Sequence record: OQ471969.1
Length of the DNA stretch: 64,000 bases
Reading direction: 5' to 3' (one strand)
Source: Acinetobacter phage vB_AbaM_ABMM1
The translations under genes were made by a program, and so were the position numbers. The notes under the pieces were generated by a model. The model saw only the letters and a program-made list of their open reading frames with translations. It was not told where the DNA came from and did no database searches. Positions within the stretch are counted from its first letter, which is position 1. The number at the start of each line of letters is the position of its first letter. Shown one piece after another: positions 10,801-63,012 of this stretch.

Positions 10801-13800
10801 TTTTAATTAGAGAAGTGCAACTTGAAAAAGGTGAGTTAGCCACTGGTTTTAGAAAAAATCCTCGTGAACTAATTAAGGATCTTGAAGCTAATGCTTCTGC
10901 AATTGAGGGTACTAAAGCGGATGTTCAAAAAAACGGTGAGAAGATTACTTCACTTGCAGAGAATTATGCGACTTTAAAATCTACTGTAGACAATAATAAA
11001 ACTGCTGTAGATGGTAAGTTTCAGGAAATTAATTCAACTATTAGTGATAATCAACAGAACACCACACAGTCTATTAATAACTTGGAATCAAGTTATAAAC
11101 AATTAAATCAGGACCTTGGTCAAGTTTTCAATTACCGTGTTTATTCATGTGGCTGGAATGGCTTTTTCACAGGGATTAAAAACTTAAAGGGTGAAATCAA
11201 ATCAGTAGCTTCAGCTCGTGGTTTTTCAGTACATGTTTTAGCAGCTGATGGTTCTGTTGCTTCTTCAACTAGATATGATACTTATGCAGCTGTAGCAAAT
11301 GCTACGGCAATGAGTAACGCTATTGCTGCGATTCCAAATGACACCTTTGTTATCGTTACAAACTACGACAGTATTGGGGTAAACCTAGCACCAGTTAAGA
11401 ATGCACTAATTTCATTAGGTGCCAATCCATTCACACTTGATCAAATAACGGGTCGGGATGCATACATTTTAGTTGGTCAGAAGGGGATTGGTTCAGGTCG
11501 TGGTATAGAATTGCATGCAACACCAGATACTGGACCAAATGGGGCTAAGCAAATCATGCTTGCAGTCCAAGTAGTTAGTGGTATCCCGATTGGTCTGGCA
11601 AACAATAGTGGAAACTTACAAAAGGTTTTAGAAAACCACGCACAAATTCTTCAAGAAAAAATTACAAGATCTGATGCGAAAGAAGTATTTGCTGAGGAAA
11701 TCAAAGTTTTTAAAGCACAACTTGATACTTTACGTTACTCAGAAGAGAACTGGATTTTACTTGGTGATGATACTAAAAATTTAAGTATTTCTACTGGTAC
11801 AAACCGAACTGTAGCTGTTTGGGAACTGCAATATAAACACAAGGAAATTCCAATTGATAAGGGTGATCCAATAGTTGCGAGAATCAAATACACAGCAACT
11901 GCAGGATTAGTTGGCGCTACATGTAGTATTCAATTTCATGGTGCAACTTATAGTGTTGGGTTGCCTTCGTTTGTTGTAGCTGCAAGTGGTGAAATAGAAC
12001 TTACTGGTATTTTCCCATCTGATTTAAAAGCCTCTGCTTTTGAAGCTATTCCATTGGGTTTACGGTTTGATAATGCTCCATCTGGTGGAACATTTACTGT
12101 AACTAATATGTTTATTAGCCGGGGTAATTCAGCGCCAAATTTTAAGGGCGGATTTAGATCGTCTCTTAAACAAAATGCTCAATTTGTTGAAGATACTTTT
12201 ATCAAGGCTGATGTAAATAAAGGGGTTATAGCTCAGCAAATTCAACAATATGATGCAACTGTACCTGGTGGTTTATCTTCTGTAGTAAAAACAACAAAAG
12301 CTACAGCTGACCAAACATCAAAGGATCTAGCTACACTTAGAAATACTGAAATTTCTCAGCTTCAAACAAGTACAAATAATCTTGGTTCCGCATTAGAAAA
12401 CACAACAATGCTGGCGATGATGATTACTAATGGAAAATTGTTGCAGGGAGACGTAAATTTCAAAAAAGGTAACAATGGTGTATCTGTCTATAACAATGCC
12501 GGCAATGGGAACGTGACAGTTACTCGTGTCGCGAAAAGTGCTGATAACCCAACTACATCAACCTATGAAATTGAAATTAAAACCATTGGTGCTGCCAGCC
12601 CAACATGGGGTGGATTTGTTCAACTCGTTTATGGCCGTGCAAATGCTGTTTTTGTTATCAAGTATTTAATCAAGCTACCAGTTGGATATAAATTGGTGAA
12701 TGCTGGTAACGCAATGGGGACAGGGGCAATTGATCGATTCATTGGCAATACTGAGGGTACAGGCAAATTCGAAACATATATTCGAATGATTAAATGTGGT
12801 GCTGTAGGTTCTTTCTCTAACTCAGGACATGTTTATGTGGCGGGAGGATCTACACCAACAGCTACTGCGCCTTTAGTTTGGACCTTAGCCCAAATCGAGC
12901 AATATGACGTTACTGATTACGCTTCAGCTGACCCGACTTTACAGGACTTTGTTTCTTCAGCCACAGACTCTATATCAACATTAACGAACTTCAAAGAAAC
13001 TTGGGCTGCCAAACTTACTGAAATGTCTTCAAAATTAGACAGTAAAAACGGCGCTTATATTTTGAATGCGGATATAACAAATACTAATGTTGAGCGTGCA
13101 ATTGCAGCATCTTCACAGAAAATTACTTCTGAATATACCAATGCTATGAGTGTGCAGCCATTGAGTTCAGGTGCAGGGAAAATTTTCGTTAAGCCTTTAA
13201 CTTGGCGTCAAGCAATCACTACTTCGGGTACATTGGTTATTAAGACACCAATTACAGTTGGTGCGTACATGACCAAGGTTAAAATTTCTGGTTATAACTA
13301 CAATAACAAAGAAGATAATATTTTCGATCTGGATTTGGCATTTTATGCATATACGTCAACAGTGCCATTTTATTCGAATATGACCTCTCGTTCTTTTGGT
13401 ATCACTTTAGATGAAAGTAATGCTACGACTAAAGGTCTAGCTTTAGCTTTAGATAGCAATAATAAGGTGTGCATCTTAATTACCAAAAAATATGCTTGGT
13501 CTTACCCAGCAATTACAGTTGAGTCGGCCACTATTACTCATACAAATCCGCCAGATTACTTTAAAGATGGCTGGACGGCGGCCATTGAAACAGATTTATC
13601 AGTTTATAAGTCAGTTACGCCGTTTACAGTGACTTCAATGATGGAAACCACTGCAGGTTCACAAGCCAAAGTAGATGTTCCAATGTCTCAATTAAGTGAT
13701 ATTGCAGCTGATAATAAACTCACACCAGTTGAGAAAAAACAGGCGAAGTTGGTTTGGGATACACTTTATCAAACTGATGCAAGCTTGCGAGCTGAGGCAG

Positions 13801-15233: not shown

Positions 15234-15632
15234 ATGGCTACATTCTTATTAAGGGACCTCGGTGGCAACGTAGTCCTTGATCTAACATCTAATCTTAGTA
15301 TGTATACAGAAACGTTAAGTGTTGTCCTCCCGAAAGGTTCATCTATGGACACAATTGTACGAAAACTAGATACTGCTGAAAATCATCCAAGATGGTGGGC
15401 TTATGTAGCTTCTGGTGAAGTGTTATCTGCCAATAGTGCTGTAGTTGAGTCTTATTCAAATGGTATGGGATGTGCCATTTTGACTAAAGCTATGGCTATT
15501 GAGGCTAAGCTGGGCGATAAGATACTTAATCAAATGGATGATACTTCATCTTATTTATTAATTTATGATTGTAGAGCTTATTACAATACAGCTTTTCAGC
15601 AAACGGTTAGTATTCATATAGGTAAATGCTAA
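15234..15632 (+). CDS. Hypothetical protein downstream of the tail fibre (possible fibre accessory)
   Basis: 132 aa; start adjoins the giant-ORF stop. Confidence 0.4.
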   Translation: MATFLLRDLGGNVVLDLTSNLSMYTETLSVVLPKGSSMDTIVRKLDTAENHPRWWAYVASGEVLSANSAVVESYSNGMGCAILTKAMAIEAKLGDKILNQMDDTSSYLLIYDCRAYYNTAFQQTVSIHIGKC

Positions 15633-16402
15633 TGGCTGAATACATCAAAATTCTCAATGATAATAAAGTGACAATAATTGACGACAGCTATAGAAACTTT
15701 CACCTTATAAATAAGTTTGTTAGGGAAGTCGCTTCTTCAGACCCATTACCTCCTGCAGTGCTATCTGTATCTGGTTACGTTAAGTGTCATGTTTTGAATG
15801 TTACATCTTTACAAAGACCAATTGTGGTATTTACAGGCGTTTCTGTGATGCAGGTCAGATATGAAGAAATTTCCACAAATAATTGGAAAATAACTGTAAT
15901 TTTTGACACCTTAGACGACCAAGGAGGATTTAAATATAAGAATACTTTTCCTTTTACAAAAGCAACTTATTATGTATTTGGATTAATTACTTTATTAGAA
16001 AGTGGTCATTCGCCAAAATTACTAATTAAGAATGGTAAAGGTGAGATTGTATTTTCTAACTCCCACAATCCTTTAAAAGTAGTTAAAGCAGAAACTTTTT
16101 ATTTAAAAGGCAGTGCAAATTATTTTAGCTCATGGTTATCAGATATACCTGATTATAATGCTAATAAGACTTATGGCTTGGCTTTAGCTTGTCCAGCTCA
16201 TTATGAATATTATTGGGGAGTTGGTGGTTTGAGTTCTTATATGCATTCATACTGTACTATAAAGACTAACTCATATAGTGATCCAACTTTCTCAGGTAAG
16301 ATCCTTCGGGGATATACGATACTAGCTAATGGTATGAATACTTCAGCTAGTCTCTATTCTCCATTTCATAGTCATTTAATAGTTGATATTACTGGCTATT
16401 AA
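15626..16402 (+). CDS. Hypothetical protein (AT-rich)
   Basis: 258 aa; overlaps the previous stop; low-GC coding sequence. Confidence 0.4.
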   Translation: MLMAEYIKILNDNKVTIIDDSYRNFHLINKFVREVASSDPLPPAVLSVSGYVKCHVLNVTSLQRPIVVFTGVSVMQVRYEEISTNNWKITVIFDTLDDQGGFKYKNTFPFTKATYYVFGLITLLESGHSPKLLIKNGKGEIVFSNSHNPLKVVKAETFYLKGSANYFSSWLSDIPDYNANKTYGLALACPAHYEYYWGVGGLSSYMHSYCTIKTNSYSDPTFSGKILRGYTILANGMNTSASLYSPFHSHLIVDITGY

Positions 16403-16782: not shown

Positions 16783-18318
16783 ATGTCTTCTCGGTTCTTA
16801 TCGTTGTTACTCGGTGAAAATGTTAATTCATATGATCAGCAATTCGATACGTCTAATCAGGATGCAACAGCGCAGCTATATGAAACTATGGCTCCGTTTT
16901 CACTTGGGACTAACCAAACCAAAGCCAATAAGAAGCGTACTCGAAAAGAAATTCTTACTAAATGGGAGAGAATGTTACGCTTTGCACCTATCGCAGAGGG
17001 TATGGGGATTCATGTTTCTGCAGCCTTAGGCGGAGATTCTTATAGCGGCCAACAAGTCTTTATTACGCCCGCAGAACGGTTAAAAAAGGCGAATGGACCA
17101 GCAGCTGAAAAACTAAAAAAACAACTAGATGAGCGCCGTGTAAAGATGGAAAAGCTTATCAATAAGTATTTAAGCAAACTTGCCCGAGATGCTATTTCTT
17201 TCGGTGATTCCTATGCACGTATTTATGGGAAAAAAGATATAGGTGTAATTGACCTCGTATGCAATGAGTATACATATCCGCCATTAATACAACCGTTCGA
17301 ACAAGGCAGTAAGACTGTCGCCTTTTTTTGTTTAGATCCTCGTAATTGGCAAAAAACTATTACCAAACTGAATACTATTCAAATGGTACGTTTCAAAATG
17401 CCCCGTATGAGCAATATTGCTCAATATGAGCTTGTTGAAACTGGTCTTGTCACGAAAATGTTGGAGGGTGATGATCCAGATGAGCTACCAATCTTACCAG
17501 CGCATTTAGGCGGCTCATTTCTTTATGAGATTGAAGATATTTATGATGATGTAATCCTCGCTTTGGCATCAATGAATAGCCAGCAAATTGCAGATACCGT
17601 AAATCAGATGTTCTTGACAGTAAATATGTCAGGAATGCCGCCAGCACAACGTCAAGCCTATATCCGTGGTTTAGAAGGTTTACTCAAAAATCATGAGGCT
17701 TATGTCCGTGATGCTTTATCAGGTGGTGAAGCAGTCTGGAATACTGCTTTTCACATGCTTCCAGTATTTGATGAAAAACAAGTTCTAAATCCAGTGGGTG
17801 ATATCAAGAATCAACGAAGCTCACCTATTAATATTGAACAGTTCATGATTAATGTCCGTTTGTTAATGGGCGGTATAGGTCTAGACCCAAGTATGGTAGG
17901 GTGGGCTGACATGTTAACTGGTGGTATTGGAGAAGGTGGAGCATTCCATACTTCTGCACAAATCATGCGTAGGTCACAAGACATTCGAACAGCAGCTTCC
18001 GAAGGGATTAATCAAATTCTTCACTTGGATTGGGGTTTTGCTTATAACGAACAATTTGAGCCTGAAGATTACCCTTGGCAAGTTGAATATTATTCAAACC
18101 AAACTGCAGCAGCTACGGAAGAAATCAACAATGCTCAATCAAGAATGAATACAACATTACTTAAAACACAAGTAATCGCATCATTGAAAGAATCAAATTT
18201 AGATGTAGATATTATGGCGTACATTCTTGAGCGCGATACAGGTATGAAATATGAGGAAGCATTAACATTAGCTGAAAGTATTGCTAAGAGCCGTAAATTT
18301 CCAGAGGATGAAGAATAA
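16783..18318 (+). CDS. Large hypothetical protein with an acidic C-terminus (portal-like or virion protein; function unknown)
   Basis: 511 aa; first gene of a TAATG-coupled operon; no NTPase or nuclease motif seen. Confidence 0.5.
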   Translation: MSSRFLSLLLGENVNSYDQQFDTSNQDATAQLYETMAPFSLGTNQTKANKKRTRKEILTKWERMLRFAPIAEGMGIHVSAALGGDSYSGQQVFITPAERLKKANGPAAEKLKKQLDERRVKMEKLINKYLSKLARDAISFGDSYARIYGKKDIGVIDLVCNEYTYPPLIQPFEQGSKTVAFFCLDPRNWQKTITKLNTIQMVRFKMPRMSNIAQYELVETGLVTKMLEGDDPDELPILPAHLGGSFLYEIEDIYDDVILALASMNSQQIADTVNQMFLTVNMSGMPPAQRQAYIRGLEGLLKNHEAYVRDALSGGEAVWNTAFHMLPVFDEKQVLNPVGDIKNQRSSPINIEQFMINVRLLMGGIGLDPSMVGWADMLTGGIGEGGAFHTSAQIMRRSQDIRTAASEGINQILHLDWGFAYNEQFEPEDYPWQVEYYSNQTAAATEEINNAQSRMNTTLLKTQVIASLKESNLDVDIMAYILERDTGMKYEEALTLAESIAKSRKFPEDEE

Positions 18319-18971
18319 TGGCTTTTTTTGAATACGAAACACAGAATAAAACTATAAATAACAGTTTTGGAAACGTTTTAAATCCGTTTAAAGATCGTTT
18401 TGCTAAAAATCCTGTCTTATGGTCTGGTCTAACAGTGGATCGAGCTGTTTCCCATTATCAGGAACTTTACGCATTAGGAACACTTTCAGCTGCACATTTT
18501 GGAATAGAAATTCAGCCTTACCGTGCAAACAGTAAGATTGCTCAAGCGAATATTCCAATTTTTGATCCTTCAAATAAAGTTGCTTGGTTAGCCAATAATG
18601 TCGATGTATCACTACTTGATGCTCAAACCGATGCAGTGCATGTGGGGCACTTTCAACTCAACCATGTAACAGGTAATGCGTCAAATGAGTTGAGTATTTC
18701 ATTTATTGAGACTAAAGATGCTGCAATTGCGAATAGTGCTAAAGCTATAAAAGATATAATGTTTAATAAGGATGGTACTCAGCCGCCACCAATTGAATAC
18801 TTAATGCGATTAAAAATATATGCTTTTGATAAAGCTGCAAGAAATCAAAACCAATTTGAAATTGAGCATCTAGTTTCACTTCAAGCAGGCAATTTGCCCC
18901 TTGATGCCTCTAATAAAGCACATACCATTGTTACTTTAAATTTCATCAAAATGTTTCCCAACTTAAAATAA
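18318..18971 (+). CDS. Hypothetical protein
   Basis: 217 aa; start overlaps the upstream stop. Confidence 0.5.
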   Translation: MAFFEYETQNKTINNSFGNVLNPFKDRFAKNPVLWSGLTVDRAVSHYQELYALGTLSAAHFGIEIQPYRANSKIAQANIPIFDPSNKVAWLANNVDVSLLDAQTDAVHVGHFQLNHVTGNASNELSISFIETKDAAIANSAKAIKDIMFNKDGTQPPPIEYLMRLKIYAFDKAARNQNQFEIEHLVSLQAGNLPLDASNKAHTIVTLNFIKMFPNLK

Positions 18972-19044
18972 GCTATGGAACTCATTGGCTTTATAGATTC
19001 ACCTAATTGAGAAAATATCCTCAAATTAAAATGAGGATAACTCC

Positions 19045-20997
19045 GTGAGTGTTAAATCAATTTTCATTCAAACACACGCACCACATCAAAGCCGATTAGT
19101 ACATGGTTTTGACTCCATGGTGAATAGTGGTGCTTGTTCAATTGGGTTTATTAAGGGTGATTACCGTCAAATTAATGCTTTAGTCACTGAAGATTACACG
19201 GAAAATGATTTCTGGCGTGTTGTAAATTTAAAAGGCAAAAAGGGTGGGATAGATGCGTTTGATTCCGTTGCGGTATTAGGCGCTATCGATGACCAGCATG
19301 CAGCTGATTTAGCGATACTGCAATTCGGCCGTATGTTTGATGCTTGTGTTACAGATGTTATTGAAACGAATCAATTTGGACTTAAGCGCCATTTATCATC
19401 ACAACAATTTAATTTGACGGGTTCAAAACCGATTCAAAGATGGCAACTAGAACAATTACAAAATGTTGTAGCAGCTGAAAAACCTGAATGGGATGGAATC
19501 AATTTAATTTCTCATGAGGGTGATACTTCTAAGTTGTTATTAGATATGCAACGAAATGATGATCACAGCCAATTATTGAGTAAATTTGATGGGTTACCTA
19601 CACTTTTATCTAGTCTAGGCGTAGAAGAAGCGCTTTACGACTCTATTATCGTTGATTACCAGCATTTAGAGCAGCTGTCTGCAATTTTGCATCACTCTAT
19701 GGATCAGTTTTCAAAAACTGGCGTCAAAATCGTTAACGTTACGGAAAGTAAGCCATTTAAGCATAAAAAAGTCCTTCAAATTGCTCTTACTTATGATTTT
19801 GATGACGGCCAAAACTTCACAATCCTTTTTCATAAGCCAGATCGATTATCAAAAAAAATTAGTCCAGCAGATTCATTAATTTCATGGAAGATTTTAATGA
19901 ACAATCGGGATATTACGGCTGCAATTCAGCCGAATCAGGGAGAAGGAATTTCAATTCCAGTTCTCGCTGGTCGAATTATGAAGTTGATTAACCAAAATAG
20001 TAATCGTTTTAAGCGGTTACAATCTAAAAAAGCAGAAAAGGCCAAGGCTTTAGCAGATGCTGAACTACGTCTCGAGCAAAAACAAAGTCAATTAAATTCT
20101 TTAAGTGTAGAAATTTCCAATTTATTAAATGAATTGGATCAGTTGCAAAATACATTGTTAACCAAGCAATCTGAAGAAAATGAAGTAATCATTAAAGAGA
20201 ATAGTCTCGATAATGAGTTACCAGATAGTATTTCTGATGAAGAAGCCGAACGTTTAAAAGCCGACTTAAAGCGTTTAAATGCTGATCCTGAATGGGCAGG
20301 TGAAGATGGTTTACGTTACCAAGCATTCTTTGAACGTATCAATAAGGCTCTAGAGGGGGATTCTGATGCAGTAGTTTGGGCACGTGAATGGATTTCTGAT
20401 CTAGATGACCAGGCTTTGGCTCAACAGCAAGCAGAATTAGAAGCAAAAAAACTTATTGATGCCGAAAATGAAGCTAAACAAAAAAGAGATGAAGAAGTAT
20501 TAGCAGCACGTACAGCTGGTATAGCTGAAAACAAAATGATGCAAGCATGGTTAGACACTTTGGAAAATCCTGAAGATTCTAACAACATAGACTTTATGGC
20601 TTGGGTTTCAGATCGCCGTGGTGAATTCTTAAAAAACTGGAATGGTGCCGAAGGTTCACCAGAATATTTAACAGCATTTTATGAATATTCAAGAGCATGG
20701 GCAGATGAACATTTAGCGGATCGCCTCAGAAATAAAGAGCCAGCCCAAAATTCAGATAATGAAGAATTTAAAGAACTAAATGCTCCGACAGAAGTTGAAG
20801 ATCTTCAGCCTAGTACGACAAATGATGAAGGTAATCAACTTTACCGTTCAGTAATTGAAGGGCAGGTTAAAGTTAATCTTGAGTTATTAGAGCAAATTCG
20901 AGATGAAGCAGAAAAAGACTTAAATGATCCACTTCTTATTCCAGCGGTGACAGAGCTCTTGAATCAAGTACAAAAAATGGAAGCGGAGAATATCTAA
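19045..20997 (+). CDS. Hypothetical protein with a globular N-terminal domain and a long acidic coiled-coil C-terminus
   Basis: 650 aa; residues ~330-650 are E/K/Q/L-rich heptad-like sequence. Confidence 0.5.
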   Translation: MSVKSIFIQTHAPHQSRLVHGFDSMVNSGACSIGFIKGDYRQINALVTEDYTENDFWRVVNLKGKKGGIDAFDSVAVLGAIDDQHAADLAILQFGRMFDACVTDVIETNQFGLKRHLSSQQFNLTGSKPIQRWQLEQLQNVVAAEKPEWDGINLISHEGDTSKLLLDMQRNDDHSQLLSKFDGLPTLLSSLGVEEALYDSIIVDYQHLEQLSAILHHSMDQFSKTGVKIVNVTESKPFKHKKVLQIALTYDFDDGQNFTILFHKPDRLSKKISPADSLISWKILMNNRDITAAIQPNQGEGISIPVLAGRIMKLINQNSNRFKRLQSKKAEKAKALADAELRLEQKQSQLNSLSVEISNLLNELDQLQNTLLTKQSEENEVIIKENSLDNELPDSISDEEAERLKADLKRLNADPEWAGEDGLRYQAFFERINKALEGDSDAVVWAREWISDLDDQALAQQQAELEAKKLIDAENEAKQKRDEEVLAARTAGIAENKMMQAWLDTLENPEDSNNIDFMAWVSDRRGEFLKNWNGAEGSPEYLTAFYEYSRAWADEHLADRLRNKEPAQNSDNEEFKELNAPTEVEDLQPSTTNDEGNQLYRSVIEGQVKVNLELLEQIRDEAEKDLNDPLLIPAVTELLNQVQKMEAENI

Positions 20998-22448
20998 TGA
21001 CAACATTAAATCTAATTTCTACTCAAGATATTGCTAAAAATCCATTAGTTGTAATTGATCAAATGATCAGCTTCTTTAAACCTAAACAGCCCTTCACTGG
21101 GCTTTTGAAGGGTAGAACTAATAATGTGAAAACAGCCAAAGGACAAAAGATTTCTACTGTATTCGCTTTAGTTGATATTGATCAAGTCATTGCATCTCAT
21201 ACAGCAACTGGTGCGGAAAACCCTAATTATCCGCAAGAATTGCAGCCACGAGATCGTAGTCGTGAATCCTCACAAGCATGGGTACAGAAAACTGCTAATG
21301 ATTTAGATCCCGAAAGCCTAGGCCGCTCAGGTCGTGCAGATACGGGAGCACCGATTACTGGTGATGATTTAGTGGTTGAATCAGGAAATGGCCGAACAAT
21401 GGCAATCAAGCTTGCCTATGATCGCGGTTCCGCAGATGAGTATAAACAATGGTTGATTGATGAAGCTGATTACTTTGGCTTTAGTAGTGAGCAGGTCCAA
21501 GCAATAGCTCAACCGATTTTGATACGTATTCGTACAACCGAGATTGATAGAGCTCAATTTGCAATAGATGCTAACCAAGATGATAAGTTGTCTTTTACAG
21601 CAACTGAACGTGCTAAAGCTGATGCTAAACGTTTAGATGAGAATTTACTGGCACTTTTTAATCCGAGTGAAGATGGCGATTTATTAGCAGTAAGTAATCA
21701 AAAGTTTATTCAAGGTTTTTTAAGTAAATTAGGTGATACAGAAGCTGCCCAGTACACAACGAAAGATAAAAAACCAACACAAGCACTGATAAACAGAATC
21801 AAGGCCGCAATTTTTAGTAAAGCGTACAATGATGATCGTTTGCTAGAAATGATGGCTGATCATACAAAACCAGATCTTCAAAATATGCTTAATGCGCTTG
21901 GTGTTGCTGCCCCTAAATTTATTGAAGCGCAAGCCATAAGTCGTGGAAATGTTCAAGATATATCAGATCAAATCGTTGATGGAATGGAGCAAGCCATTGA
22001 TCAACGTGTTGCTAATGCAATTATTGATGCAGCAAATACCATTTTATCTGCAAAGCAAAATGATCAAGATATTGTTGAGTTTGTAAAGCAGCAAGGGCTT
22101 TTTGAGGATCTAGGAGAAGGTGTTGCTGAGCTCGCCGTATTTCTCGCCAAGAATAGCCGCAGTTCAAAAAAAATGAGTATGTTATTTAAAGCTTTAGCTG
22201 AATTTGCAGAGAAACAAGCTTTAGATAGCAGCAATGTAGGATTGTTTGGTGAACCTGAACCAGTAAGTGTAAAAGATGCTCTCCAATATGCACAACAAGT
22301 GCTTGGTGATGATTTCATTAGTGTGCAAATGTACGATTCATTATTCTCTAATGCATGTAATTATTTAAAATTAATAGATTATGTATCTAAGGATCCTCTT
22401 TTTGTTATTAAATCATTGATTATAAACATTAAAAAATATAAGTTTTAA
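20997..22448 (+). CDS. ParB/Srx-like N-terminal domain protein
   Basis: 483 aa; ENPNYPQELQPRDRS (ParB box I-like NP.QPR) and LVVESGNGRTMAIKLA (box II-like G.RR..A arrangement); start overlaps the upstream stop. Confidence 0.45.
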   Translation: MTTLNLISTQDIAKNPLVVIDQMISFFKPKQPFTGLLKGRTNNVKTAKGQKISTVFALVDIDQVIASHTATGAENPNYPQELQPRDRSRESSQAWVQKTANDLDPESLGRSGRADTGAPITGDDLVVESGNGRTMAIKLAYDRGSADEYKQWLIDEADYFGFSSEQVQAIAQPILIRIRTTEIDRAQFAIDANQDDKLSFTATERAKADAKRLDENLLALFNPSEDGDLLAVSNQKFIQGFLSKLGDTEAAQYTTKDKKPTQALINRIKAAIFSKAYNDDRLLEMMADHTKPDLQNMLNALGVAAPKFIEAQAISRGNVQDISDQIVDGMEQAIDQRVANAIIDAANTILSAKQNDQDIVEFVKQQGLFEDLGEGVAELAVFLAKNSRSSKKMSMLFKALAEFAEKQALDSSNVGLFGEPEPVSVKDALQYAQQVLGDDFISVQMYDSLFSNACNYLKLIDYVSKDPLFVIKSLIINIKKYKF

Positions 22449-22462
22449 TTTTTAACATTGGT

Positions 22463-22508
22463 ATTAGAACATTTAATTAATCTATTGTTGACTAATAAAT
22501 GTTCTAAT
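22463..22508. promoter_or_regulatory. 13-bp perfect inverted repeat (ATTAGAACATTTA ... TAAATGTTCTAAT) spanning a TTGACT -35-like hexamer
   Basis: Read directly from the sequence, ~90 bp upstream of the 22599 ORF. Confidence 0.45.
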
Positions 22509-22598
22509 ATGTTTTTTGGGAATAATTTAGGAATAAAAAACTATAGAAAAGTAAAAAAATAGTGTATAAAGTTAAGTAAAATATTTTGGAGCCGCTTT

Positions 22599-23228
22599 AT
22601 GGCCATAGCTGAAGAATTACATGTTAAAAGTTTAATCCAACCATATTCTAATTCTATTATTCAGGCTATTAAGGAGGCGTGGTCATTGTGGCTGCAAAGT
22701 CCTTTTTTTGGAAAATGGAGTTCACGCGGACGTGCCACATTCGTTTGGGAAACTGTAATTAATTTACTCAAAGAAAAATTTATGGGACGTAGTGACGTTT
22801 TTATTATAGATAAAGGTGTTACGGTACTTTTTGTAATTCAACAGCAAGTTGTTTTTCGTTTTAAATTGGCAGATAGGACTGGAAGAAGTAAAAACGTTCA
22901 AACAGATTCGGCTAAAAGCTTTCATGATCCTGAACTCAATTATAATTTATTAGCTGAAGCTGATATAGCTAGTAATATTCCACGTATTGAAGTTATCTAT
23001 ACTTTAAATAAGTCTGCTACTCAAATCGATAATATCAAAATGATTGCTAGAGATAAAAATTCCGTTGCTTGGAATGTAAGTTTAATTGATAGCCAAACAT
23101 CATTCGTTGAATTTGACGAAAGCAAAGATACAAGTGACTTTGATACTGTTAAGGATAATCAAACAAAACGTCGTTTCAAAGGGAAATCCACTGGCGGTGG
23201 ATTTAAAAAAGCAGAAGGTGAATCGTGA
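22599..23228 (+). CDS. Hypothetical protein, partner of the HTH-ImmA gene
   Basis: 209 aa; stop overlaps the start of the next ORF (GTGA). Confidence 0.5.
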   Translation: MAIAEELHVKSLIQPYSNSIIQAIKEAWSLWLQSPFFGKWSSRGRATFVWETVINLLKEKFMGRSDVFIIDKGVTVLFVIQQQVVFRFKLADRTGRSKNVQTDSAKSFHDPELNYNLLAEADIASNIPRIEVIYTLNKSATQIDNIKMIARDKNSVAWNVSLIDSQTSFVEFDESKDTSDFDTVKDNQTKRRFKGKSTGGGFKKAEGES

Positions 23229-24304
23229 GTAATTTGACCTTTAATCCTGAGTTATTAAGGATAGTAAGGCAGTTTAGAGGGTTTGGACAAACAGCTCTTG
23301 CTAAAATGGCTTCATTGTCTCAGGGAACTCTGTCAAAAATTGAAGCAGGATTGTTAGAGCCTAATGAGGAAATGGTTTCAAATCTTGCCAAAGTTTTAAA
23401 CTTTCCCGTTTCAATATTTTATGAGACCTATAAGCCATTTGGTTTACCGTTAAGTGTTCATCCCATGTACAGGAAGAACTCTTCAATCGGTAAAAGGGCT
23501 ATTGAACAACTTGAAGCTGAACTTAATATTCGATTATTTAACTCTATGAAGTTAGTTAAAGCTATTGAGTTTGAGGAGGATTTACCACTTCCTTTTTTAA
23601 GTTTAGATATATATGAAACTCCTGAAAAAGTTGCTGAATTGCTCAGAAGAACTTGGTTAATTCCTAATGGCCCATTAAAGAATTTAACCGATTATGTTGA
23701 GAGGGCAGGGTGTCTCGTATTTCATTGCGATTTCTCTCAAGAAGGTGTGTCTGGTGTAACAATAAAAGTACCTGGTTTAAACCCTTGTATTTTTATTGAT
23801 AAAAATATGCCCTCAGATAGACAACGTTTCACACTGGCGCATGAGTTAGGTCATGCAATTATGCATAAACTCCCTTCAGAAAATATGGAGGATGAGGCTA
23901 ACCGTTTTGCAAGTGCTCTTTTGATGCCTTCAAAAGATATTAGACCATATCTTACTGGGAAAATTACTTTAGAAAAGCTCGCTACCTTAAAGTTGGTTTG
24001 GAAAGTTTCTATGAATGCTCTTCTTAAAACAGCAGAACGAGAAGGCTTATTAACACCATCCCAGAAAAAGTATCTATGGATACAAATGACTAAGAATGGT
24101 TATAGGACTAAGGAACCTGTAGAGTTGGATTTTCCTAAAGAAAAGGCTGTAACTATAGATCAAATTTTTGAATACTATAGAGAAGACTTAGGTTACTCAA
24201 TTGATGAGTTATCTAATTTATTGCAAACACCAAAAGAAGACATTGATTCACTCTACTCATTAAATATAGTTAAGAAAAAACCAAATATACGAATTTTAGA
24301 ATAA
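23225..24304 (+). CDS. XRE-family HTH fused to an ImmA/IrrE-type zinc metallopeptidase
   Basis: 359 aa; N-terminal HTH (TALAKMASLSQGTLSKIE); HEXXH motif in FTLAHELGHAIMH. Confidence 0.7.
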   Translation: MSNLTFNPELLRIVRQFRGFGQTALAKMASLSQGTLSKIEAGLLEPNEEMVSNLAKVLNFPVSIFYETYKPFGLPLSVHPMYRKNSSIGKRAIEQLEAELNIRLFNSMKLVKAIEFEEDLPLPFLSLDIYETPEKVAELLRRTWLIPNGPLKNLTDYVERAGCLVFHCDFSQEGVSGVTIKVPGLNPCIFIDKNMPSDRQRFTLAHELGHAIMHKLPSENMEDEANRFASALLMPSKDIRPYLTGKITLEKLATLKLVWKVSMNALLKTAEREGLLTPSQKKYLWIQMTKNGYRTKEPVELDFPKEKAVTIDQIFEYYREDLGYSIDELSNLLQTPKEDIDSLYSLNIVKKKPNIRILE

Positions 24305-24308
24305 GATA

Positions 24309-24338
24309 GGCCCTCCATTAGGAGGGTTTCCTTTTTTA
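24309..24338 (+). terminator. Rho-independent terminator
   Basis: ggccctccattaggagggtttcctttttt. Confidence 0.65.
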
Positions 24339-24519: not shown

Positions 24520-25233
24520 ATGGACCGTATAATCATGTCTGATAAGAACTTCGTATTTCCTTCAGGATTGACCAGTCAACGTGCTAGAGCTTTAGCTAAA
24601 GAAGCAAAAAAACTAAATGGTACGCAACTTTCATGTGAGCTGGATTTAATATCTAAAAAAGAATGTCAACTCCCATGGCATAAAGCAGTTGCTAAGTTTA
24701 CTAATGAAGATATCTCAATTCTACATTTGAAAGTAGAAGATATTTTGAAAAAAAACCCATTATTGGGTTATGGTGGATTCTATTCTCCATTAATATTTTC
24801 AGATCGTTATTATCAACGTCAATATAGAATGTCTAAAATAGAGTATGAACAGCATTTTATTGAAGGCCGAATTTTAAGTACAGACTGGTTAAAACAAATA
24901 GAATATGCTCAGCAGTTTATGTCATATTTTGGAAAAAATAAGAATATAAATAATAATATGTTAGGTTCTTATGGGTTAAAACATATGTGTGAGGATTACT
25001 ATGGAGAAATATGTGGTCAGCATACTTATATATCTAATGGTGCATTAATCATAGGTGCTATTTTAAATAATTTCAATTTTGAGCAATATAGTGAATATCA
25101 TATTAACTGTAGTTTTAATATTAGTAAAAAAAGTGAATTTTACCAATGGTATAAAATGTGGAAATATGGCTACAGGCCAAGTCAGTATCTAAAGTTTAAG
25201 ATATTGGACCAAAAATATAGATCTAATAGCTAA
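24520..25233 (+). CDS. Hypothetical protein in a very AT-rich region (orphan/moron)
   Basis: 237 aa; Y/N/K-rich; bounded by terminators at 24309 and 25318; local GC visibly lower than the flanks. Confidence 0.5.
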   Translation: MDRIIMSDKNFVFPSGLTSQRARALAKEAKKLNGTQLSCELDLISKKECQLPWHKAVAKFTNEDISILHLKVEDILKKNPLLGYGGFYSPLIFSDRYYQRQYRMSKIEYEQHFIEGRILSTDWLKQIEYAQQFMSYFGKNKNINNNMLGSYGLKHMCEDYYGEICGQHTYISNGALIIGAILNNFNFEQYSEYHINCSFNISKKSEFYQWYKMWKYGYRPSQYLKFKILDQKYRSNS

Positions 25234-25317
25234 AGCTTTAGTTAAAAAGACATGAATTAAAAAAGTAATCGATAAATCAAGGGAAATCGTTTAACTGTTC
25301 GTAAGGTGCTTAACAAA

Positions 25318-25346
25318 TGAAAACCAGCTAACTAGCTGGTTTTCTT
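25318..25346. terminator. Hairpin terminator at the 3' end of ant2
   Basis: aaaccagctaactagctggtttt. Confidence 0.55.
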
Positions 25347-25391
25347 AATTTGGGGAGTTCTGGTGGAACATCTTAAAATAATTATATGCCC

Positions 25392-26291
25392 TTATCCTCT
25401 GATAGGTTCATAGGGAAACCTCTTTAAAACTTTACCTAATTCAAGTACCTCATCTTTATGTAAAAAATCCCATAGTTGATTGAATTTCTCCCGAAGTTGT
25501 ACGACATTTACAGGTGTATGATGTGAAGTGTATTGATGTACTGCAACAGCACCACTTTCCTGAATTGAAATCCAGAAGTTTTTAGGGCCATTTGGAGATT
25601 GATACTTTAACTTTTCACCTACTTGTTGAGCAATTTCATAAGCCAGAGGGTTTTCTAATGCTGGATAACGTGATGAAACTCGATCTAAAAGATTTTCAAG
25701 CCGTTGTAAAGGATCTGATTCCACTTTTTCAACAACATTGATTGATTCTAAGTATTGTTTAGCTTCTTCAAAATGTATTGATAAAAGTTGGCTGTACTTA
25801 GCTATGCCAAAATGTCTGTTATGCCGTACCCACATAGATGCCCGTTGGCTGCGGTTTTTACCAGCACGGCGGTCAACTATCTCATGTAGTGCATGCTGCT
25901 GCTCAGGGGTAATCGTAAGACGTTTGTTTATTGCCTGTCCTTTTGTCCAGTAATCCCAAAGCACATCATCACATTCTTGTTGATACATGATGACTGTTTC
26001 GCGAAGTTCAGGCCGGACTTTGTTGGCGTGGATTGAGTAAAGCCATGCAGCTAATTTTCGGACAGGTAAGCAAGTCATTAAGCGACTTTTCCCATCATTG
26101 GCAACTGTGGTGATTTCCACCATAGTTGCACTGAAACGATCTTTTAATTTAACAAACTGGCTTTTCCAATCTAGCCCCATAGCTTCAACGATAGGTTTCA
26201 TTGGTGTATAAGGCTGCCCATGATGTTCAATAATCATAAGTTCTGCATCATGAAATGGTACAACTTGTGGTATGTATGATAAATTAGACAT
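25392..26291 (-). CDS. Phage antirepressor-like protein, paralog 2
   Basis: Six-frame ORF is 25392-26450; the start is assigned to Met54 (MSNLSYIPQVVPFHDAEL) by alignment with the other two copies and an aggat RBS. Confidence 0.6.
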   Translation of the reverse strand: MSNLSYIPQVVPFHDAELMIIEHHGQPYTPMKPIVEAMGLDWKSQFVKLKDRFSATMVEITTVANDGKSRLMTCLPVRKLAAWLYSIHANKVRPELRETVIMYQQECDDVLWDYWTKGQAINKRLTITPEQQHALHEIVDRRAGKNRSQRASMWVRHNRHFGIAKYSQLLSIHFEEAKQYLESINVVEKVESDPLQRLENLLDRVSSRYPALENPLAYEIAQQVGEKLKYQSPNGPKNFWISIQESGAVAVHQYTSHHTPVNVVQLREKFNQLWDFLHKDEVLELGKVLKRFPYEPIRG

Positions 26292-26320
26292 ATCAATATC
26301 CTTTCGTGGTTGTTGATAGA

Positions 26321-26363
26321 AGCCCTTGCATTTGGTTGGTAGCCTGCAAGGGCTTTGTTGTTT
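26321..26363 (+). terminator. Terminator-like hairpin antisense to the ant2 leader
   Basis: agcccttgca / tgcaagggct 10-bp inverted repeat followed by ttgttgttt; 30 nt upstream of the ant2 start. Confidence 0.5.
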
Positions 26364-26492
26364 CAGGTTTAGAGCCTGTTGTGAATAACTATATATAGTG
26401 TATTTAAATAATGCAATATTAAAATAAATTAAAATATAAAAAGAATGCAATCTTACTGTGTTATGATTAATTATCTTTTTTAGAGAATTGAG

Positions 26493-26741
26493 ATGATTAA
26501 GAATAATATTATTGCCTTACGAGATAAGGCCGGCATGACGGCGTATCAGTTAGCGAAACAATGCGGATTTATTTCAAATAACCATGTACTGGGAAAGAAG
26601 ATAAGTGACGCAGAAAAAGGAAAAAATATCACAATTGAAACGGCTTTTTTAATCTACACTGAACTCAAAAAAGCTGGTGTATGCGAGAAGTTTGAAGATG
26701 TCTTTTGGCTTGAATGTGATGATAAAGATATCGAAAACTAA
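26493..26741 (+). CDS. Small HTH protein divergent from ant2
   Basis: 82 aa; paralog of 1451-1705 with an identical C-terminal 24 aa. Confidence 0.55.
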   Translation: MIKNNIIALRDKAGMTAYQLAKQCGFISNNHVLGKKISDAEKGKNITIETAFLIYTELKKAGVCEKFEDVFWLECDDKDIEN

Positions 26742-26828: not shown

Positions 26829-27623
26829 ATGTCCAAAGCTTTAGCTTATGCACCAGCTGTAAATACAGCAAAAACTAATTTACCAAGTAATGAATCAGAT
26901 CCATTCTATGGTTCTATTTCAAAGCACAAATACGCAGAGTTTTCTCTATGTGACAAAGAGGGGAATCCTATTGCTGGCTCGCCAGTGATTAGAGCCTTAT
27001 TAACGGACGGTGATAAAAGCATTGAGAGCCAATGGCAAACTCCATTTGAGAATAGTAATCCTGAGCTAAAAATGCCTATGCTCATGGCAGGCTTACAATC
27101 AGGTCAGCTATCACAAGTCGCTGAACAGATGCAAAGTAATCCTATAGCTCAAGTTTTATCAAAACTTGGGGTTCAAGATGCTATGCAGAGCGTTGAAGGG
27201 CGTACCAATCTAACTAAAGTGAATACAACTCAAGTATTCCTATCTACTTCTTCAGTACGGCTCAACCTTTCTATTTTCTTCCTTGCCTTTAGTGATGCGA
27301 AAACAGAAGTTGAAGACAGGATCATGCAATTAGAGGCTTGGAGTCTTCCAGTTTCTTTATCTTCTGATTCTACACTTCAGAATGTGGTTAATGACTCAAA
27401 CTCAACTTTAGAAGGGTTGTTTTCAGGTGTAATCCCACCCTTTGTGTCTCTGACAACTCACGGCAAAACTTATAAACCTTTCATTATTGAAAGTGTTTCT
27501 GCACCAATTGTTGCGCCAATTGATGAGAAAGGTAACCGGTTAAGTTTGGCCGTGAATATAAGTTTGATGAGTCGAACTGCATGGGATTCAAAAGACATTT
27601 ATTCATTGTATGGAGGCAACTAA
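26829..27623 (+). CDS. Hypothetical phage structural-like protein
   Basis: 264 aa; its 5' end is duplicated at 1796. Confidence 0.45.
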   Translation: MSKALAYAPAVNTAKTNLPSNESDPFYGSISKHKYAEFSLCDKEGNPIAGSPVIRALLTDGDKSIESQWQTPFENSNPELKMPMLMAGLQSGQLSQVAEQMQSNPIAQVLSKLGVQDAMQSVEGRTNLTKVNTTQVFLSTSSVRLNLSIFFLAFSDAKTEVEDRIMQLEAWSLPVSLSSDSTLQNVVNDSNSTLEGLFSGVIPPFVSLTTHGKTYKPFIIESVSAPIVAPIDEKGNRLSLAVNISLMSRTAWDSKDIYSLYGGN

Positions 27624-30239: not shown

Positions 30240-30454
30240 TTATCGACCTCCGTCTAGGAAGAGCCCTTTGGAAAAAGTGGTCTGGTTATCATCGGCGAAG
30301 TTTGGTCGAAACCAAGATGCATTGCATCAAATTATTAGGCGATAAACTCTACTCAAGGAATTTTGACAGCCAAGTGAATGAGATCCATGCACGTGTAGCC
30401 GTATTAAATAAATTTACAGAATTAGGCAGACCTCATACCCAAGTTGTAACCTAA
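30240..30454 (+). mobile_element. 3' remnant of an IS5-family (IS903-group-like) transposase gene
   Basis: Encoded ...WKKWSGYHRRSLVETKMHCIKLLGDKLYSRNFDSQVNEIHARVAVLNKFTELGRP matches the conserved transposase C-terminus W..GYHRRSL.ET.M...K.L.G..L.SR....Q..E..A....LN; no DDE N-terminal part is present. Confidence 0.6.
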
Positions 30455-30576
30455 ATTTTAGCAACTTATGAAAACTTTACCTTCAAAGGCTTTATGCAAC
30501 AAAGCCTATATTTGGGTAAAAGTAATAAAAAAAATCCTCAATTGAGGATTTTTAAAGCTTAGTATTTATAAAAATA

Positions 30577-31373: not shown

Positions 31374-31432
31374 GAGCAAAAAATTGCTCAAAATTGATAA
31401 AATCCTTCGAAAGTGAGCAAAAAATTGCTCAT
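31374..31432. promoter_or_regulatory. Two copies of the 17-bp palindrome GAGCAAAAAATTGCTCA, 42 bp apart
   Basis: Read directly at 31374-31390 and 31416-31432, between the umuC 3' end and the start of the 30577-31275 gene. Confidence 0.5.
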
Positions 31433-57379: not shown

Positions 57380-58336
57380 ATGAGGTTATTTTTCATGGGC
57401 AGTCTTAATCTTGCAGCTGTTACAGCTTCCACTCCATACATTAAAAAGATTCAATCGGCATTAGAAAAAGCAACAGGCCAAACGATTGTTACACCAGAAT
57501 TTCGCAAAATTAAGCGTGTTGCTGGTGTTAGCGTTTTACCAGTTGCATTTTTCTTTTCAGGTGGCGCTACGCTCACACTTTATGTTCGAGCTTTAGCAGA
57601 TGTGGTCAAGGCCGAACTGAACGACAAAGTAATTGTGTTATCAGGCGATTTTAGTGATGACTATAAGCCAACATTTGAAAACGCCGTGAGTTGTGTAGCT
57701 AAACTTATCCGTGAAGCACAATCAAAGATTCAAGAACAAAATAAACGGGATAAAGTCAGTTTGCCGCCGCGCCGTACTTCTGTAGATCAGAAAATTAAAG
57801 AAGTACAAGAACAAGAACAAAAGCTAGATGAAGATTTAGCAAAACAAACCGCTCAGCGTGACCAACTGAAGGAACAAATTGAACATGCTAAGCAACAACT
57901 TGGTATAAGTTCGGAGGCTGGTCAATCCGAACTGGGAAAGCCTGAATTTGATAGTGCGAGTCCAATCAAATCAGTTACAGCAAATATCACACGTGGTAAA
58001 GCTGCAATGAACAAAGCCATTATGGAAAAAACCACAGTGCATAGAGCTATGTATCGTAATGATCTAGGCTGGGTGGATTTTGAGTATGGCAGTGATAAAC
58101 AGGGCATTAAGCATATTATCAAGCGCCGTATGGAAAGTGATGGCATGACATATGATGAAGTTGTGCATATGCTTGTGGATACTATTGTGCAAACAATCGC
58201 TCAAGGTAGTACACAACGGCGTACAGAACGTGGATTATCTACAAGAATAAATATTGTATTTAATTCGCATGAAGCGTCATTGATTAAGCGAGAAGGTAGT
58301 AATGCATGGCTGCTTACAGCTTTTGAAGTGCATTAA
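57380..58336 (+). CDS. Hypothetical protein (coiled-coil middle; conserved-looking C-terminal GWVDFEYGSDKQGIKHIIKRR domain)
   Basis: 318 aa; an alternative start is at 57395. Confidence 0.45.
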   Translation: MRLFFMGSLNLAAVTASTPYIKKIQSALEKATGQTIVTPEFRKIKRVAGVSVLPVAFFFSGGATLTLYVRALADVVKAELNDKVIVLSGDFSDDYKPTFENAVSCVAKLIREAQSKIQEQNKRDKVSLPPRRTSVDQKIKEVQEQEQKLDEDLAKQTAQRDQLKEQIEHAKQQLGISSEAGQSELGKPEFDSASPIKSVTANITRGKAAMNKAIMEKTTVHRAMYRNDLGWVDFEYGSDKQGIKHIIKRRMESDGMTYDEVVHMLVDTIVQTIAQGSTQRRTERGLSTRINIVFNSHEASLIKREGSNAWLLTAFEVH

Positions 58337-62106: not shown

Positions 62107-63012
62107 ATGGCTAGCAAAAATAGAAAGACAAAAGTTCTATCTTACAACTTACATGACCGATGCCGTAAATTTACCGGTGTTGATCGAAGTAATGTCGATG
62201 TAGATGCAATGGTCAACTTGATCAACAGTGACCATGTACAAGAAATGGTTGCTACTAATTCATTACAAGGTTTTTACGGTCATCAAATTCGACAGCGCTA
62301 TGGTATGGTGCCGCCTGAAACGGTGATCATTAAAGGTAAAGTTGTATATCTTTCACGGGCATTTAAAACAATTGAATTACGTGCGTCAAAGGATGGAACA
62401 GTTGAACACCGAGAAGAGTTTTATGATAACGAGCCTGGTGAGATCGCATTACAAGATTATAAAGCCCAAGCGGGTGGTTTTAGCACATCAGTCAATTACA
62501 AGAATGTCGGTGGCCGTTTAATTCCAACGGGTTTTTTTGGTTTTGATTTCGTTGCACAACCAAATTATGCAAGTAATGTAGGTGATGGTCAGTTATTTGA
62601 TGGATTATTTGTTCCTGAAGAGCCAGAAGGTGTTGTTTCTTGCTTTGATAGCGCAACAGATATTTCACAGTTATCACAGCCCGAAATTATTATTGCCCAA
62701 TTACTTGAAGATCAAATTTTACAGACATACGACAATATCAATAGTCAGCTGCATCTATTAACCGAGTTAGGAAATGCTCAAGGATTAGTGGGTGAATTAT
62801 CAGAAAAAGTTGATAAACAGAAACGCTTGCAACAACTTAGAGAAGAACGAAAAAAAGAACTCTATACGGGTATGGTAAATCCTGTGAAGAGTTTTGATTC
62901 AGTACAACAACAAGCTGAACAAATCATTCAAAGTTTGGACAATCCAAACGTAAAAGAGAAACCTAAAAAGCCGAAAAAGTCTTTTGGCAGTATCTTTAGT
63001 GTATGGGGGTAA
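62107..63012 (+). CDS. Phage morphogenesis protein with a C-terminal coiled coil (scaffold/protease-like guess)
   Basis: 301 aa; acidic/basic coiled-coil tail. Confidence 0.35.
   Translation: MASKNRKTKVLSYNLHDRCRKFTGVDRSNVDVDAMVNLINSDHVQEMVATNSLQGFYGHQIRQRYGMVPPETVIIKGKVVYLSRAFKTIELRASKDGTVEHREEFYDNEPGEIALQDYKAQAGGFSTSVNYKNVGGRLIPTGFFGFDFVAQPNYASNVGDGQLFDGLFVPEEPEGVVSCFDSATDISQLSQPEIIIAQLLEDQILQTYDNINSQLHLLTELGNAQGLVGELSEKVDKQKRLQQLREERKKELYTGMVNPVKSFDSVQQQAEQIIQSLDNPNVKEKPKKPKKSFGSIFSVWG

Follow-up and report, generated by a model that had tools for sequence, protein, structure and literature searches.

The locus analyzed here comprises six neighboring open reading frames (ORF1–ORF6, positions 16783–24304) of Acinetobacter phage vB_AbaM_ABMM1 (sequence record OQ471969.1), in a stretch of 64,000 nucleotides to which we refer as the window. 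Its closest described counterparts are the Dar proteins of phage P1, the polyvalent proteins of phages and the RosmerTA systems. In P1, the inside of the capsid bears 55 DarA–Hdf pairs, which sit at the junctions of pentons and hexons and contact the DNA; DarA is N-terminally processed, DdrA, DdrB, DarB and Ulx need both DarA and Hdf to be packaged, and the Dar proteins exit the head with the DNA and shield it from type I restriction (PMC12810830; PMC9024508). DdrB, DdrA, DarA and Hdf are present in the P1 virion proteome (PMC9024508), and both DarA and the capsid protein are presumed substrates of the protease Pro (PMC9024508; PMC12810830). The C-terminal zincin metallopeptidase domain of DdrB (HEXXH motif) has been proposed to drive autoprocessing. 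In their study of polyvalent proteins, Iyer, Burroughs, Anand, de Souza and Aravind (2017; PMC5512222) described DdrB-ParB and DarA_N as signature domains of virion-delivered phage proteins, predicted the former to be DNases or NTPases delivered from the virion, defined a conserved Asp and an NX+ motif in the latter, and already noted DdrB-ParB proteins in Acinetobacter prophages. RosmerTA systems combine a Zn-peptidase antitoxin with diverse toxins, mostly of unknown function, and several of them confer phage defence (bioRxiv 10.1101/2022.05.11.491447; PMC10440598).

Our analysis indicates that the region is very probably composed of two unrelated units lying side by side, a P1-type virion block (16783–22448) and an accessory cassette, rather than of one cargo operon. 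Earlier work has described the domain families, the virion context in which they occur and the fact that Acinetobacter prophages carry them (PMC5512222), and RosmerTA is also a known system. What is new is modest: the conservation of a portal–Tub–DarA–DdrB block across Moraxellaceae, a slot behind ddrB with mutually exclusive helicase and RosmerTA-like alleles, a module from the position of DdrA that is fused to the DarA-like protein, and a widespread uncharacterized family to which ORF5 belongs. The cluster is mostly ordinary and explainable, not mystery cargo; a false lead is removed by recognizing it as the portal-proximal virion block of widespread P1-related prophages of A. baumannii.

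The coordinates of all six ORFs were verified (Table 1). ORF1/ORF2 and ORF3/ORF4 share 1-nt stop/start overlaps (TAATG, at 18318 and 20997) and ORF5/ORF6 a 4-nt overlap (GTGA, 23225–23228). All six have many homologs and are therefore genuine genes, not ORFs that arose by chance. The cluster lies between a gene for a 3451-aa tail fibre (4878–15233) and those for holin (28654) and lysin (28938). An earlier note, made from the letters of the sequence without database searches, had recognized the six ORFs, the coupled pairs and the position between fibre and lysis genes, all of which hold. It had found no P-loop, and a HEXXH motif only in the ImmA-like protein; we too detected no Walker A motif in any of the six ORFs, and the sole HEXXH is HELGH at residue 206 of ORF6. 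It had also seen no DEAD box; ORF4 contains a literal DEAD tetrapeptide (residues 155–158), but an isolated one with no other helicase motif around it. The ParB/Srx-like boxes it had noticed are real and belong to the ddrB-ParB domain of ORF4, and the protein it had called half acidic coiled coil is ORF3, the C-terminal half of which contains 10–13 Asp or Glu per 50 residues from residue 351 onward. A near-identity DNA search against the phages in GenBank gave no match for the region; the only close ones (97–99%) are chromosomes of A. baumannii that PLSDB lists as plasmids.

The portal–Tub–DarA–DdrB block

Searches of the whole window with 82 P1 proteins (tblastn) returned exactly Prt, Tub, DarA and DdrB, at ORF1–ORF4, plus Pro at 62125–62574. 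Because these matches are joined by PHROG profile labels for a PmgG-like protein, an Hdf-like protein and a baseplate protein of the family containing P1 BplA, the element is, as judged from its sequence, a distant relative of P1 in the virion module, with Acinetobacter as the host.

ORF1 is predicted with great clarity to be a portal protein of the P1 Prt type. A profile search assigned it to the portal family phrog_1497 (E 8.9e-212), BLASTP aligned it to P1 Prt over 413 aa, at a low identity of 24% (E 1e-36), and its residues 61–473 match the solved P1 portal (PDB 9ums_C, "Prt", E 4e-34). ORF2 has no match in Pfam, and its sequence signals are weak (tail tube family phrog_1842, E 4e-8; P1 Tub, E 0.1 in phmmer and 0.002 in tblastn). 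An AlphaFold2 model of ORF2 was built from 20 homologs and is of moderate confidence only (pLDDT, the predicted value of the local distance difference test, 72.6). The top match of the model in a Foldseek search of the PDB was P1 Tub (9ay5_A: E 2e-8, template modeling (TM) scores 0.54/0.64), on which it superposes best, yet at only ~15–23% identity. Tube or initiator proteins of T4 (5iv5) and Klebsiella phage KP1 came next, at about 1e-6, and tail tube proteins were also returned from BFVD. The model thus points to the fold of the myophage tube and tube-initiator proteins, such as T4 gp19, gp48 and gp54, and is closest to Tub, the hexameric tube initiator of the P1 baseplate (PMC12810830), the exact tail ring being not readable from the sequence. 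We also considered P1 Pro, which in P1 occupies the position after the portal, as a counterpart of ORF2 and rejected it: BLASTP detects no similarity, and the Pro homolog of the window lies elsewhere (Table 1). In P1 (PDB 9ums, 9ay5, 9vzk) the Prt and Tub genes are far apart, whereas here they are adjacent and translationally coupled.

ORF3 contains a DarA_N domain (Pfam E 1.1e-21, 77.4 bits against a cut-off of 27 bits). The domain and the coiled coil that follows it align with residues 138–281 of P1 DarA (27% identity over 165 aa, E 2e-14 to 3e-15), and in this alignment DGQ (with its Asp) and N-x-R are read at the positions of the conserved Asp and the NX+ motif of the family. ORF3 also matches the profile phrog_1926, labeled "released from the phage upon host infection". 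A module of ~63 residues near its C-terminus shows similarity to small genes of relatives (BLASTP: 51% identity, E 2e-16, to positions 10755–11072 of locus L135; 44%, E 5e-9, to 8411–8740 of locus L137). In these distant relatives the module forms the C-terminal ~60 residues of a separate gene for a protein of 105–109 aa, which lies between darA and ddrB, i.e. at the position of DdrA in P1. According to these alignments the DarA-like protein of the A. baumannii lineage includes the module, and so the small gene is missing and ORF3 and ORF4 are directly coupled. A homology of the small protein itself to P1 DdrA is unsupported (BLASTP E 0.008; hhalign probability 5.7%). Upstream of ORF3, at 19016–19039, an 8-bp hairpin (TATCCTCA...TGAGGATA) holds in its 3' arm the Shine-Dalgarno sequence GAGGA of this GTG-start gene, and could provide translational control.

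ORF4 is related to P1 DdrB (995 aa), with residues 13–409 of which it shares 41% identity over 423 aa (BLASTP E 3e-102); the motifs VESGNGRTM and QELQPRDR are identical in the two proteins. An alignment shows the ParB/Srx active-site motif to be strictly conserved even in very distant relatives. ORF4 has neither the middle region nor the metallopeptidase domain of P1 DdrB. Like the polyvalent proteins, ORF4 stands in a context of virion genes, and some of its relatives carry an LPD3+ParB+InPase fusion or adjoin giant InPase+LPD1+helicase proteins. ORF4, however, is a solo ParB protein without a fusion, with the neighboring effector gene replaced; ddrB-ParB is its only domain, so it falls outside the polyvalent class as defined by at least two effector domains, to which proteins of the loci L069, L135 and L137 do belong.

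We scored 17 proteins of the window against 69 distinct Acinetobacter prophage loci from IMG/VR that encode ORF3 at 85–100% identity. ORF1–ORF4 are found together, in order and at 85–100% identity, in every locus that covers them. The block order is the same in metagenomic relatives whose ORF2 homologs are only 38–46% identical (range among the relatives 38–64%): the portal gene is followed by those for a Tub-like protein, a DarA_N protein (633–738 aa), the 105–109-aa protein, a DdrB-ParB protein (452 aa, or a 1067-aa LPD3+ParB+InPase fusion) and a ResIII helicase (1236 aa, or a 2104-aa InPase+LPD1+helicase protein). When GTDB was scanned with one genome per species, 80 DdrB-like loci were obtained. 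The portal-tub-darA-ddrB order is held in many Acinetobacter species, Alkanindiges and Psychrobacter, while enterobacterial P1-like elements keep the darA-ddrB adjacency alone, and in halomonads and others the ParB domain lies within giant polyvalent ORFs. As the four genes occur together in every complete locus and keep their order in distant relatives, they are core genes that form a conserved virion block, with a variable effector slot behind it, and not accessory cargo.

As in the Dar system of P1, a coiled coil comes after DarA_N in ORF3, ddrB directly follows darA among late virion genes, and Hdf-like and Pro-like genes are present in this prophage type. The differences are considerable. 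P1 is a plasmid prophage of E. coli, whereas this element is an integrated Acinetobacter prophage with a tyrosine integrase; in P1 the portal, tube-initiator and dar genes are found at three separate places, here in one block; P1 has a separate DdrA gene, whereas the window has none and the C-terminal module of ORF3 corresponds to the small gene found at that position in relatives; P1 encodes DarB and Ulx, neither of which is detectable in the window; and unlike P1 Hdf, the Hdf-like protein carries a fused PBECR1 domain, and its gene lies far off. The P1-type Dar components (DarA_N, DdrB-ParB, Hdf and Pro) are core genes across Moraxellaceae prophages, which bears on how these phages deal with the numerous restriction systems found in a major clinical pathogen, and on how therapeutic or transducing Acinetobacter phages might be designed.

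The ORF5–ORF6 pair and the slot behind ddrB

ORF6 contains an N-terminal helix-turn-helix (HTH) domain (Pfam HTH_3, E 2.5e-9) and a Peptidase_M78 domain (1.4e-24). It is matched over its full length by 14 RmrA models of PADLOC (best E 1.3e-56) and, under the cut-off of that model, by the spr1629 antitoxin model of NCBIfam. For its partner ORF5, searches of Pfam, PADLOC, NCBIfam and the PDB gave no match, and no transmembrane segment is predicted. A profile search of 1.84 billion representative proteins nevertheless revealed a large family (at least 425 clusters at 50% identity, E ≤ 1e-3), nearly all members of which are ~195–210 aa long. A profile of 53 members likewise matched nothing in Pfam, PADLOC or the PDB, and the lone PADLOC match among 52 family members was REase_II, for one member (E 0.0015). 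The conserved positions of the family are Trp, Arg, Lys, Asn, Thr and Tyr. We considered ORF5 as a nuclease and did not adopt this assignment, given that PD-(D/E)XK matches were scattered (E 0.02–0.3, TM < 0.35) and that the family has no invariant acidic residues.

In all eight contexts examined, an ORF6 homolog (42–83% identity) lies directly 3' of an ORF5 homolog (24–67%), overlapping or abutting it. Among the contexts are a lambda-like A. soli siphophage, a further phage of the Acinetobacter type, and contigs from marine and other metagenomes; the phages have the two genes at the prophage end, after the lysis genes and without a gene for the anti-repressor Ant. By its domain architecture and its contexts the pair appears to be an autonomous mobile two-gene module of the RosmerTA type, functionally unrelated to ORF1–ORF4. 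As in RosmerTA (RmrT–RmrA; Millman et al. 2022; NetFlax, PMC10440598), a small upstream gene overlaps a gene for an HTH+ImmA/M78 protein that matches RmrA profiles along its full length, the pair is prophage-borne, and the pairing is conserved across diverse contexts. ORF5, however, matches none of the RmrT models of PADLOC v2 and has no predicted transmembrane segment and no recognizable fold. Apart from a spurious match to ThsB (E 0.008) in the coiled coil of ORF3, PADLOC reports no defence-system match for ORF1–ORF5 or ORF7. We also looked for a counterpart of ORF6 in P1, where the Xre-like gene hxr follows ddrB, and found no BLASTP similarity between the two proteins.

The 150-nt AT-rich spacer 5' of ORF5 holds a perfect inverted repeat (Table 1), which is a candidate operator for the HTH domain of ORF6, and a terminator-like hairpin 3' of ORF6 closes the two-gene unit. 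A scan for the sigma-70 consensus gave fewer sites than in shuffled sequence and none that is convincing 5' of ORF5, and we claim no promoter.

In 52 loci the interval from ddrB to the PmgG-like gene is fully covered. This slot is occupied by a 1276-aa ResIII/SNF2 helicase in 33 of them and by ORF5+ORF6 in 16; the remaining loci, one each, have a helicase plus InPase, a DdrB–InPase fusion, and another content. The helicase and ORF5+ORF6 are mutually exclusive, with no co-occurrence. ORF5, ORF6, ORF7, the Ant gene (25392–26450) and an 82-aa ORF co-vary, being jointly present in a minority of the 69 loci, and the breakpoint of this cassette falls in the last ~30 codons of ORF4. On the other side the core resumes with the PmgG-like gene, which is found in relatives both with and without the cassette; PmgG is a tube-linking protein of the P1 baseplate (PMC12810830). 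The helicase of the relatives shows only weak similarity to DarB (E 2e-5). Effectors were also located in the slot of individual relatives (L008, 13540–17370; L069, 11692–14202; L135, 11128–14331; L137, 10215–14154), and the types seen after the ParB domain are a ResIII/SNF2 helicase, an InPase fusion, LPD3+ParB+InPase and an InPase+LPD1+helicase giant. Downstream of the slot effector, L069 encodes a LysR regulator and a YdcZ exporter.

Two linked readings of these data are offered tentatively, as somewhat short of an even chance: that ORF5 represents a large undescribed family of RosmerTA-type effectors, with a mechanism that may be new given its conserved Trp, Arg and Lys in place of acidic residues, and that the ddrB slot is a recombination hotspot. 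There, counter-defence effectors delivered from the virion (SNF2 helicase, InPase) would be swapped for defence cargo expressed in the lysogen, so that, of closely related prophages, some would arm the particle and others the lysogen. The helicase and RosmerTA-like alleles amount to a natural near-isogenic prophage pair for probing the function of the slot genes, and the ORF5 family offers a concrete candidate, open to testing, for a toxin or defence effector of a new kind.

Table 1. Positions in the window of the genes, domains and DNA elements discussed in the text
Feature	Position	Strand	Description
ORF1, portal, P1 Prt homolog (predicted)	16783..18318	+	511 aa; phrog_1497, P1 Prt, PDB 9ums_C
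ORF2, predicted tail-tube-fold protein, best match P1 Tub	18318..18971	+	217 aa; coupled translationally to the portal gene
ORF3, DarA-like capsid-internal protein (by analogy)	19045..20997	+	650 aa, GTG start; Pfam DarA_N, P1 DarA
DarA_N domain of ORF3, residues 197–319	19633..20001	+	Pfam PF18788 envelope
C-terminal ~63-aa module of ORF3, residues 583–645	20791..20979	+	BLASTP, alignment to small genes of relatives
ORF4, DdrB-like ParB/Srx protein	20997..22448	+	483 aa; P1 DdrB match; coupled translationally to ORF3
ddrB-ParB domain of ORF4, residues 48–179	21138..21533	+	Pfam PF18763, E 1.2e-35
Perfect 14-nt inverted repeat (TATTAGAACATTTA / TAAATGTTCTAATA)	22462–22475 / 22496–22509	.	Repeat search; 20 nt between arms
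ORF5, candidate toxin partner (RmrT-like role)	22599..23228	+	209 aa, uncharacterized ~200-aa family
ORF6, XRE-type HTH + M78/ImmA-IrrE zinc peptidase, RmrA-type	23225..24304	+	359 aa; Pfam, PADLOC RmrA
Terminator-like hairpin + T-run right after ORF6	24308..24329	+	9-bp stem, 5 GC pairs
Rest of the accessory cassette	24520..26741	.	ORF7 (237 aa, no assigned function), Ant paralog, 82-aa ORF
Anti-repressor Ant paralog of the cassette	25392–26450	-	phrog_2127 + phrog_524
PmgG-like protein, core resumes after the slot	26829..27623	+	phrog_1114 "PmgG-like", E 2.8e-81
Hdf-like protein fused to C-terminal PBECR1 nuclease-like domain	57380..58336	+	phrog_1620, E 7.2e-31; Pfam PBECR1, 7.6e-12
P1 Pro homolog, prohead protease	62107..63012	+	tblastn 31% identity, 155 aa, E 6e-17

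Proposed function and alternative explanations

The comparisons establish homology, domain content, synteny and the core or accessory status of the genes; from these and the P1 precedent we infer capsid packaging, ejection and anti-restriction activity for the products of the block. ORF3, probably after trimming by the Pro-like protease, would bind the inner surface of the capsid via its DarA_N, helical and penton-binding part, together with the Hdf-like protein. ORF3 and the Hdf-like–PBECR1 protein would then make up a docking platform inside the capsid for internal proteins, ORF4 among them, and ORF4 and the others would leave the particle together with the genome and shield the DNA from restriction on its entry into the host. 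The present variant would have exchanged a co-delivered helicase for a toxin-antitoxin or defence pair expressed in the lysogen. For this pair we infer toxicity and defence: ORF6 would repress and neutralize, ORF5 would be the effector, and the two, expressed from the prophage, would protect or stabilize the lysogen.

Several observations count against this interpretation in one or the other of its halves. ORF3 scores only 49.7 bits against the NCBIfam equivalog model of DarA (anti_RE_DarA), which has a cut-off of 350 bits, and its similarity to DarA extends over only ~165 residues, so functional equivalence is not established. ORF4 has no HEXXH motif and lacks the C-terminal metallopeptidase of DdrB, the alignment ending at residue 409 of the P1 protein. 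The role of P1 DdrB is itself poorly defined, one account being that it aids the addition of DarB to the capsid (PMC9024508) and another that it affects sensitivity to EcoB and EcoK (PMC12810830). DarB and Ulx have no tblastn match in the window, which spans part of the prophage; with neither detectable and the slot helicase lost, the anti-restriction effector part may be missing and a morphogenetic role be what is left. As to the second unit, none of the described RmrT families was matched by ORF5 or by 52 members of its family (PADLOC v2), and a Foldseek search of the PDB with the AlphaFold2 model of ORF5 (pLDDT 67) gave nothing below E 0.017. Proteins with the HTH–M78 architecture also serve as regulators of the ImmA type in prophages and integrative and conjugative elements (ICE), a high RmrA score being no proof of an antitoxin, and ORF5 is put forward as a candidate toxin only.

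The earlier note had read the four large genes as cargo of unknown function among which no portal signature could be matched, at a position where defence or anti-defence genes might be expected. On such a reading ORF1–ORF4 would be one accessory moron operon with a novel defence or anti-defence role independent of virion assembly. A site near the prophage end and beside the lysis genes, the translational coupling in pairs and the relationship of ORF3 and ORF4 to anti-restriction proteins agree with it, but ORF1 is the portal, the window offers no other match to P1 Prt (tblastn), ORF2 is a structural protein of the tube fold, and the four genes are invariably present across the family and its distant relatives, the reverse of how morons behave. 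The moron operon is thereby largely refuted, and we regard it as highly improbable. Two of the four genes are canonical virion genes, for a clear portal and a Tub-like tube initiator, and all four are core; the note had proposed checking if they travel together in Acinetobacter prophages, which they do in every complete locus. It had also held that its view would fall if all four were homologous to canonical portal, scaffold, capsid or head-completion proteins, and canonical virion relationships were found for half of them. The idea of defence or anti-defence cargo survives insofar as ORF3 and ORF4 are akin to the anti-restriction proteins DarA and DdrB of P1, and fails insofar as they are not accessory. 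As for the pair of the 209-aa protein and the HTH-ImmA protein, the note was right in calling it cargo: it is accessory, RosmerTA-like, and also present in unrelated prophages.

Two further alternatives concern one unit each. ORF3 and ORF4 could be purely morphogenetic internal head proteins that determine head size, act as a scaffold or organize DNA, with no anti-restriction role in Acinetobacter. P1 DarA and Hdf do set head size and bind capsid and DNA (PMC12810830; PMC9024508), the window is without DarB, Ulx and the slot helicase, and the two genes are strictly conserved next to that of the portal. We nevertheless consider this unlikely: the ParB/Srx active-site motif of ORF4 persists unchanged in very distant relatives, and relatives fuse the ParB domain to InPase, LPD3 and helicases typical of injected polyvalent proteins (PMC5512222), and the conserved active site and the effector fusions therefore argue for an activity in the infected cell. 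ORF5–ORF6, in turn, could be a regulatory switch of the prophage, with ORF6 as a damage-sensing ImmA/IrrE-type protease that cleaves a repressor, similarly to ImmR–ImmA or to anti-repressor circuits. The HTH and M78 architecture would suit such a protease, the cassette also holds an Ant anti-repressor and a small ORF, and ImmA of ICEBs1 is an anti-repressor protease (PMC10440598). However, two thirds of otherwise near-identical prophages lack the pair and hence do not need it to control lysogeny; in unrelated prophages it is located at the prophage end behind the lysis genes, where ORF5 is always part of it and Ant is missing; and the 14 RmrA models match ORF6 full-length. On balance a switch is rather improbable, and a RosmerTA-like module is the reading we prefer for ORF5–ORF6.

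Other parts of the prophage

The fusion of the Hdf-like protein to PBECR1 (Barnase/EndoU/colicin-E5/RelE-like) suggests a virion-delivered RNase-like effector. Its gene is not adjacent to darA: on shared IMG/VR contigs the distance to the DarA-like gene is 37–39 kb, with the Hdf-like gene upstream, whereas the window has it on the opposite side, 38 kb downstream. Two parts of the window appear to be the ends of one prophage type: positions 1–29800 the right end, with fibre, portal and lysis genes, and positions 35100–64000 the left end, with an integrase (35163–36368), early genes and Sit-like, Hdf-like, BplA-like and Pro-like genes. It follows that there are two related prophages next to each other, or else that the form is circular, with a size of about 76 kb. 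More than 1 Mb separates the umuDC-integrase segment from the DarA segment in NZ_CP104448.1.

Just past the lysin gene, near the apparent prophage end, a fragment of ~260 bp (30251–30510) shares 99% identity with transposase genes of the IS5 family that many Acinetobacter plasmids carry. The stretch from the lysis end to the integrase contains, at 31429–33225 (minus strand), a gene for a UmuC-like Y-family polymerase of 432 aa and, just upstream of it, a 164-aa ORF (umuD under a plasmid match); in the A. soli prophage L144 an IMS-family polymerase gene is found beside the integrase and the homologs of ORF5–ORF6.

The P1 late-promoter box (AAGTNACT...) was not seen by eye upstream of ORF1, ORF3 or the PmgG-like gene. 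Two small genes (132 and 258 aa, 15234–16402) follow the fibre gene; they occur only in loci where the C-terminus of the fibre is near-identical to that in the window and are absent where it is divergent, which is consistent with a swappable receptor-binding/chaperone cassette made up of the two genes and the fibre C-terminus. A 762-aa protein (51123–53411) with a Phage_lysozyme2 domain and weak similarity to tape measures recalls P1 Sit, a tape measure fused to a muralytic domain, though it is much shorter. Three paralogs of Ant-type anti-repressors (phrog_2127/524) are encoded at 351–1247 (minus strand), 25392–26450 (minus strand) and 55768–56709 (plus strand). The element has further small genes of the addiction type: a pair of an antitoxin and a RelE/ParE toxin, so named in the annotation of CP040048.1, lies at 2239–2755, and a HicB-like protein is encoded at 54801–55745.

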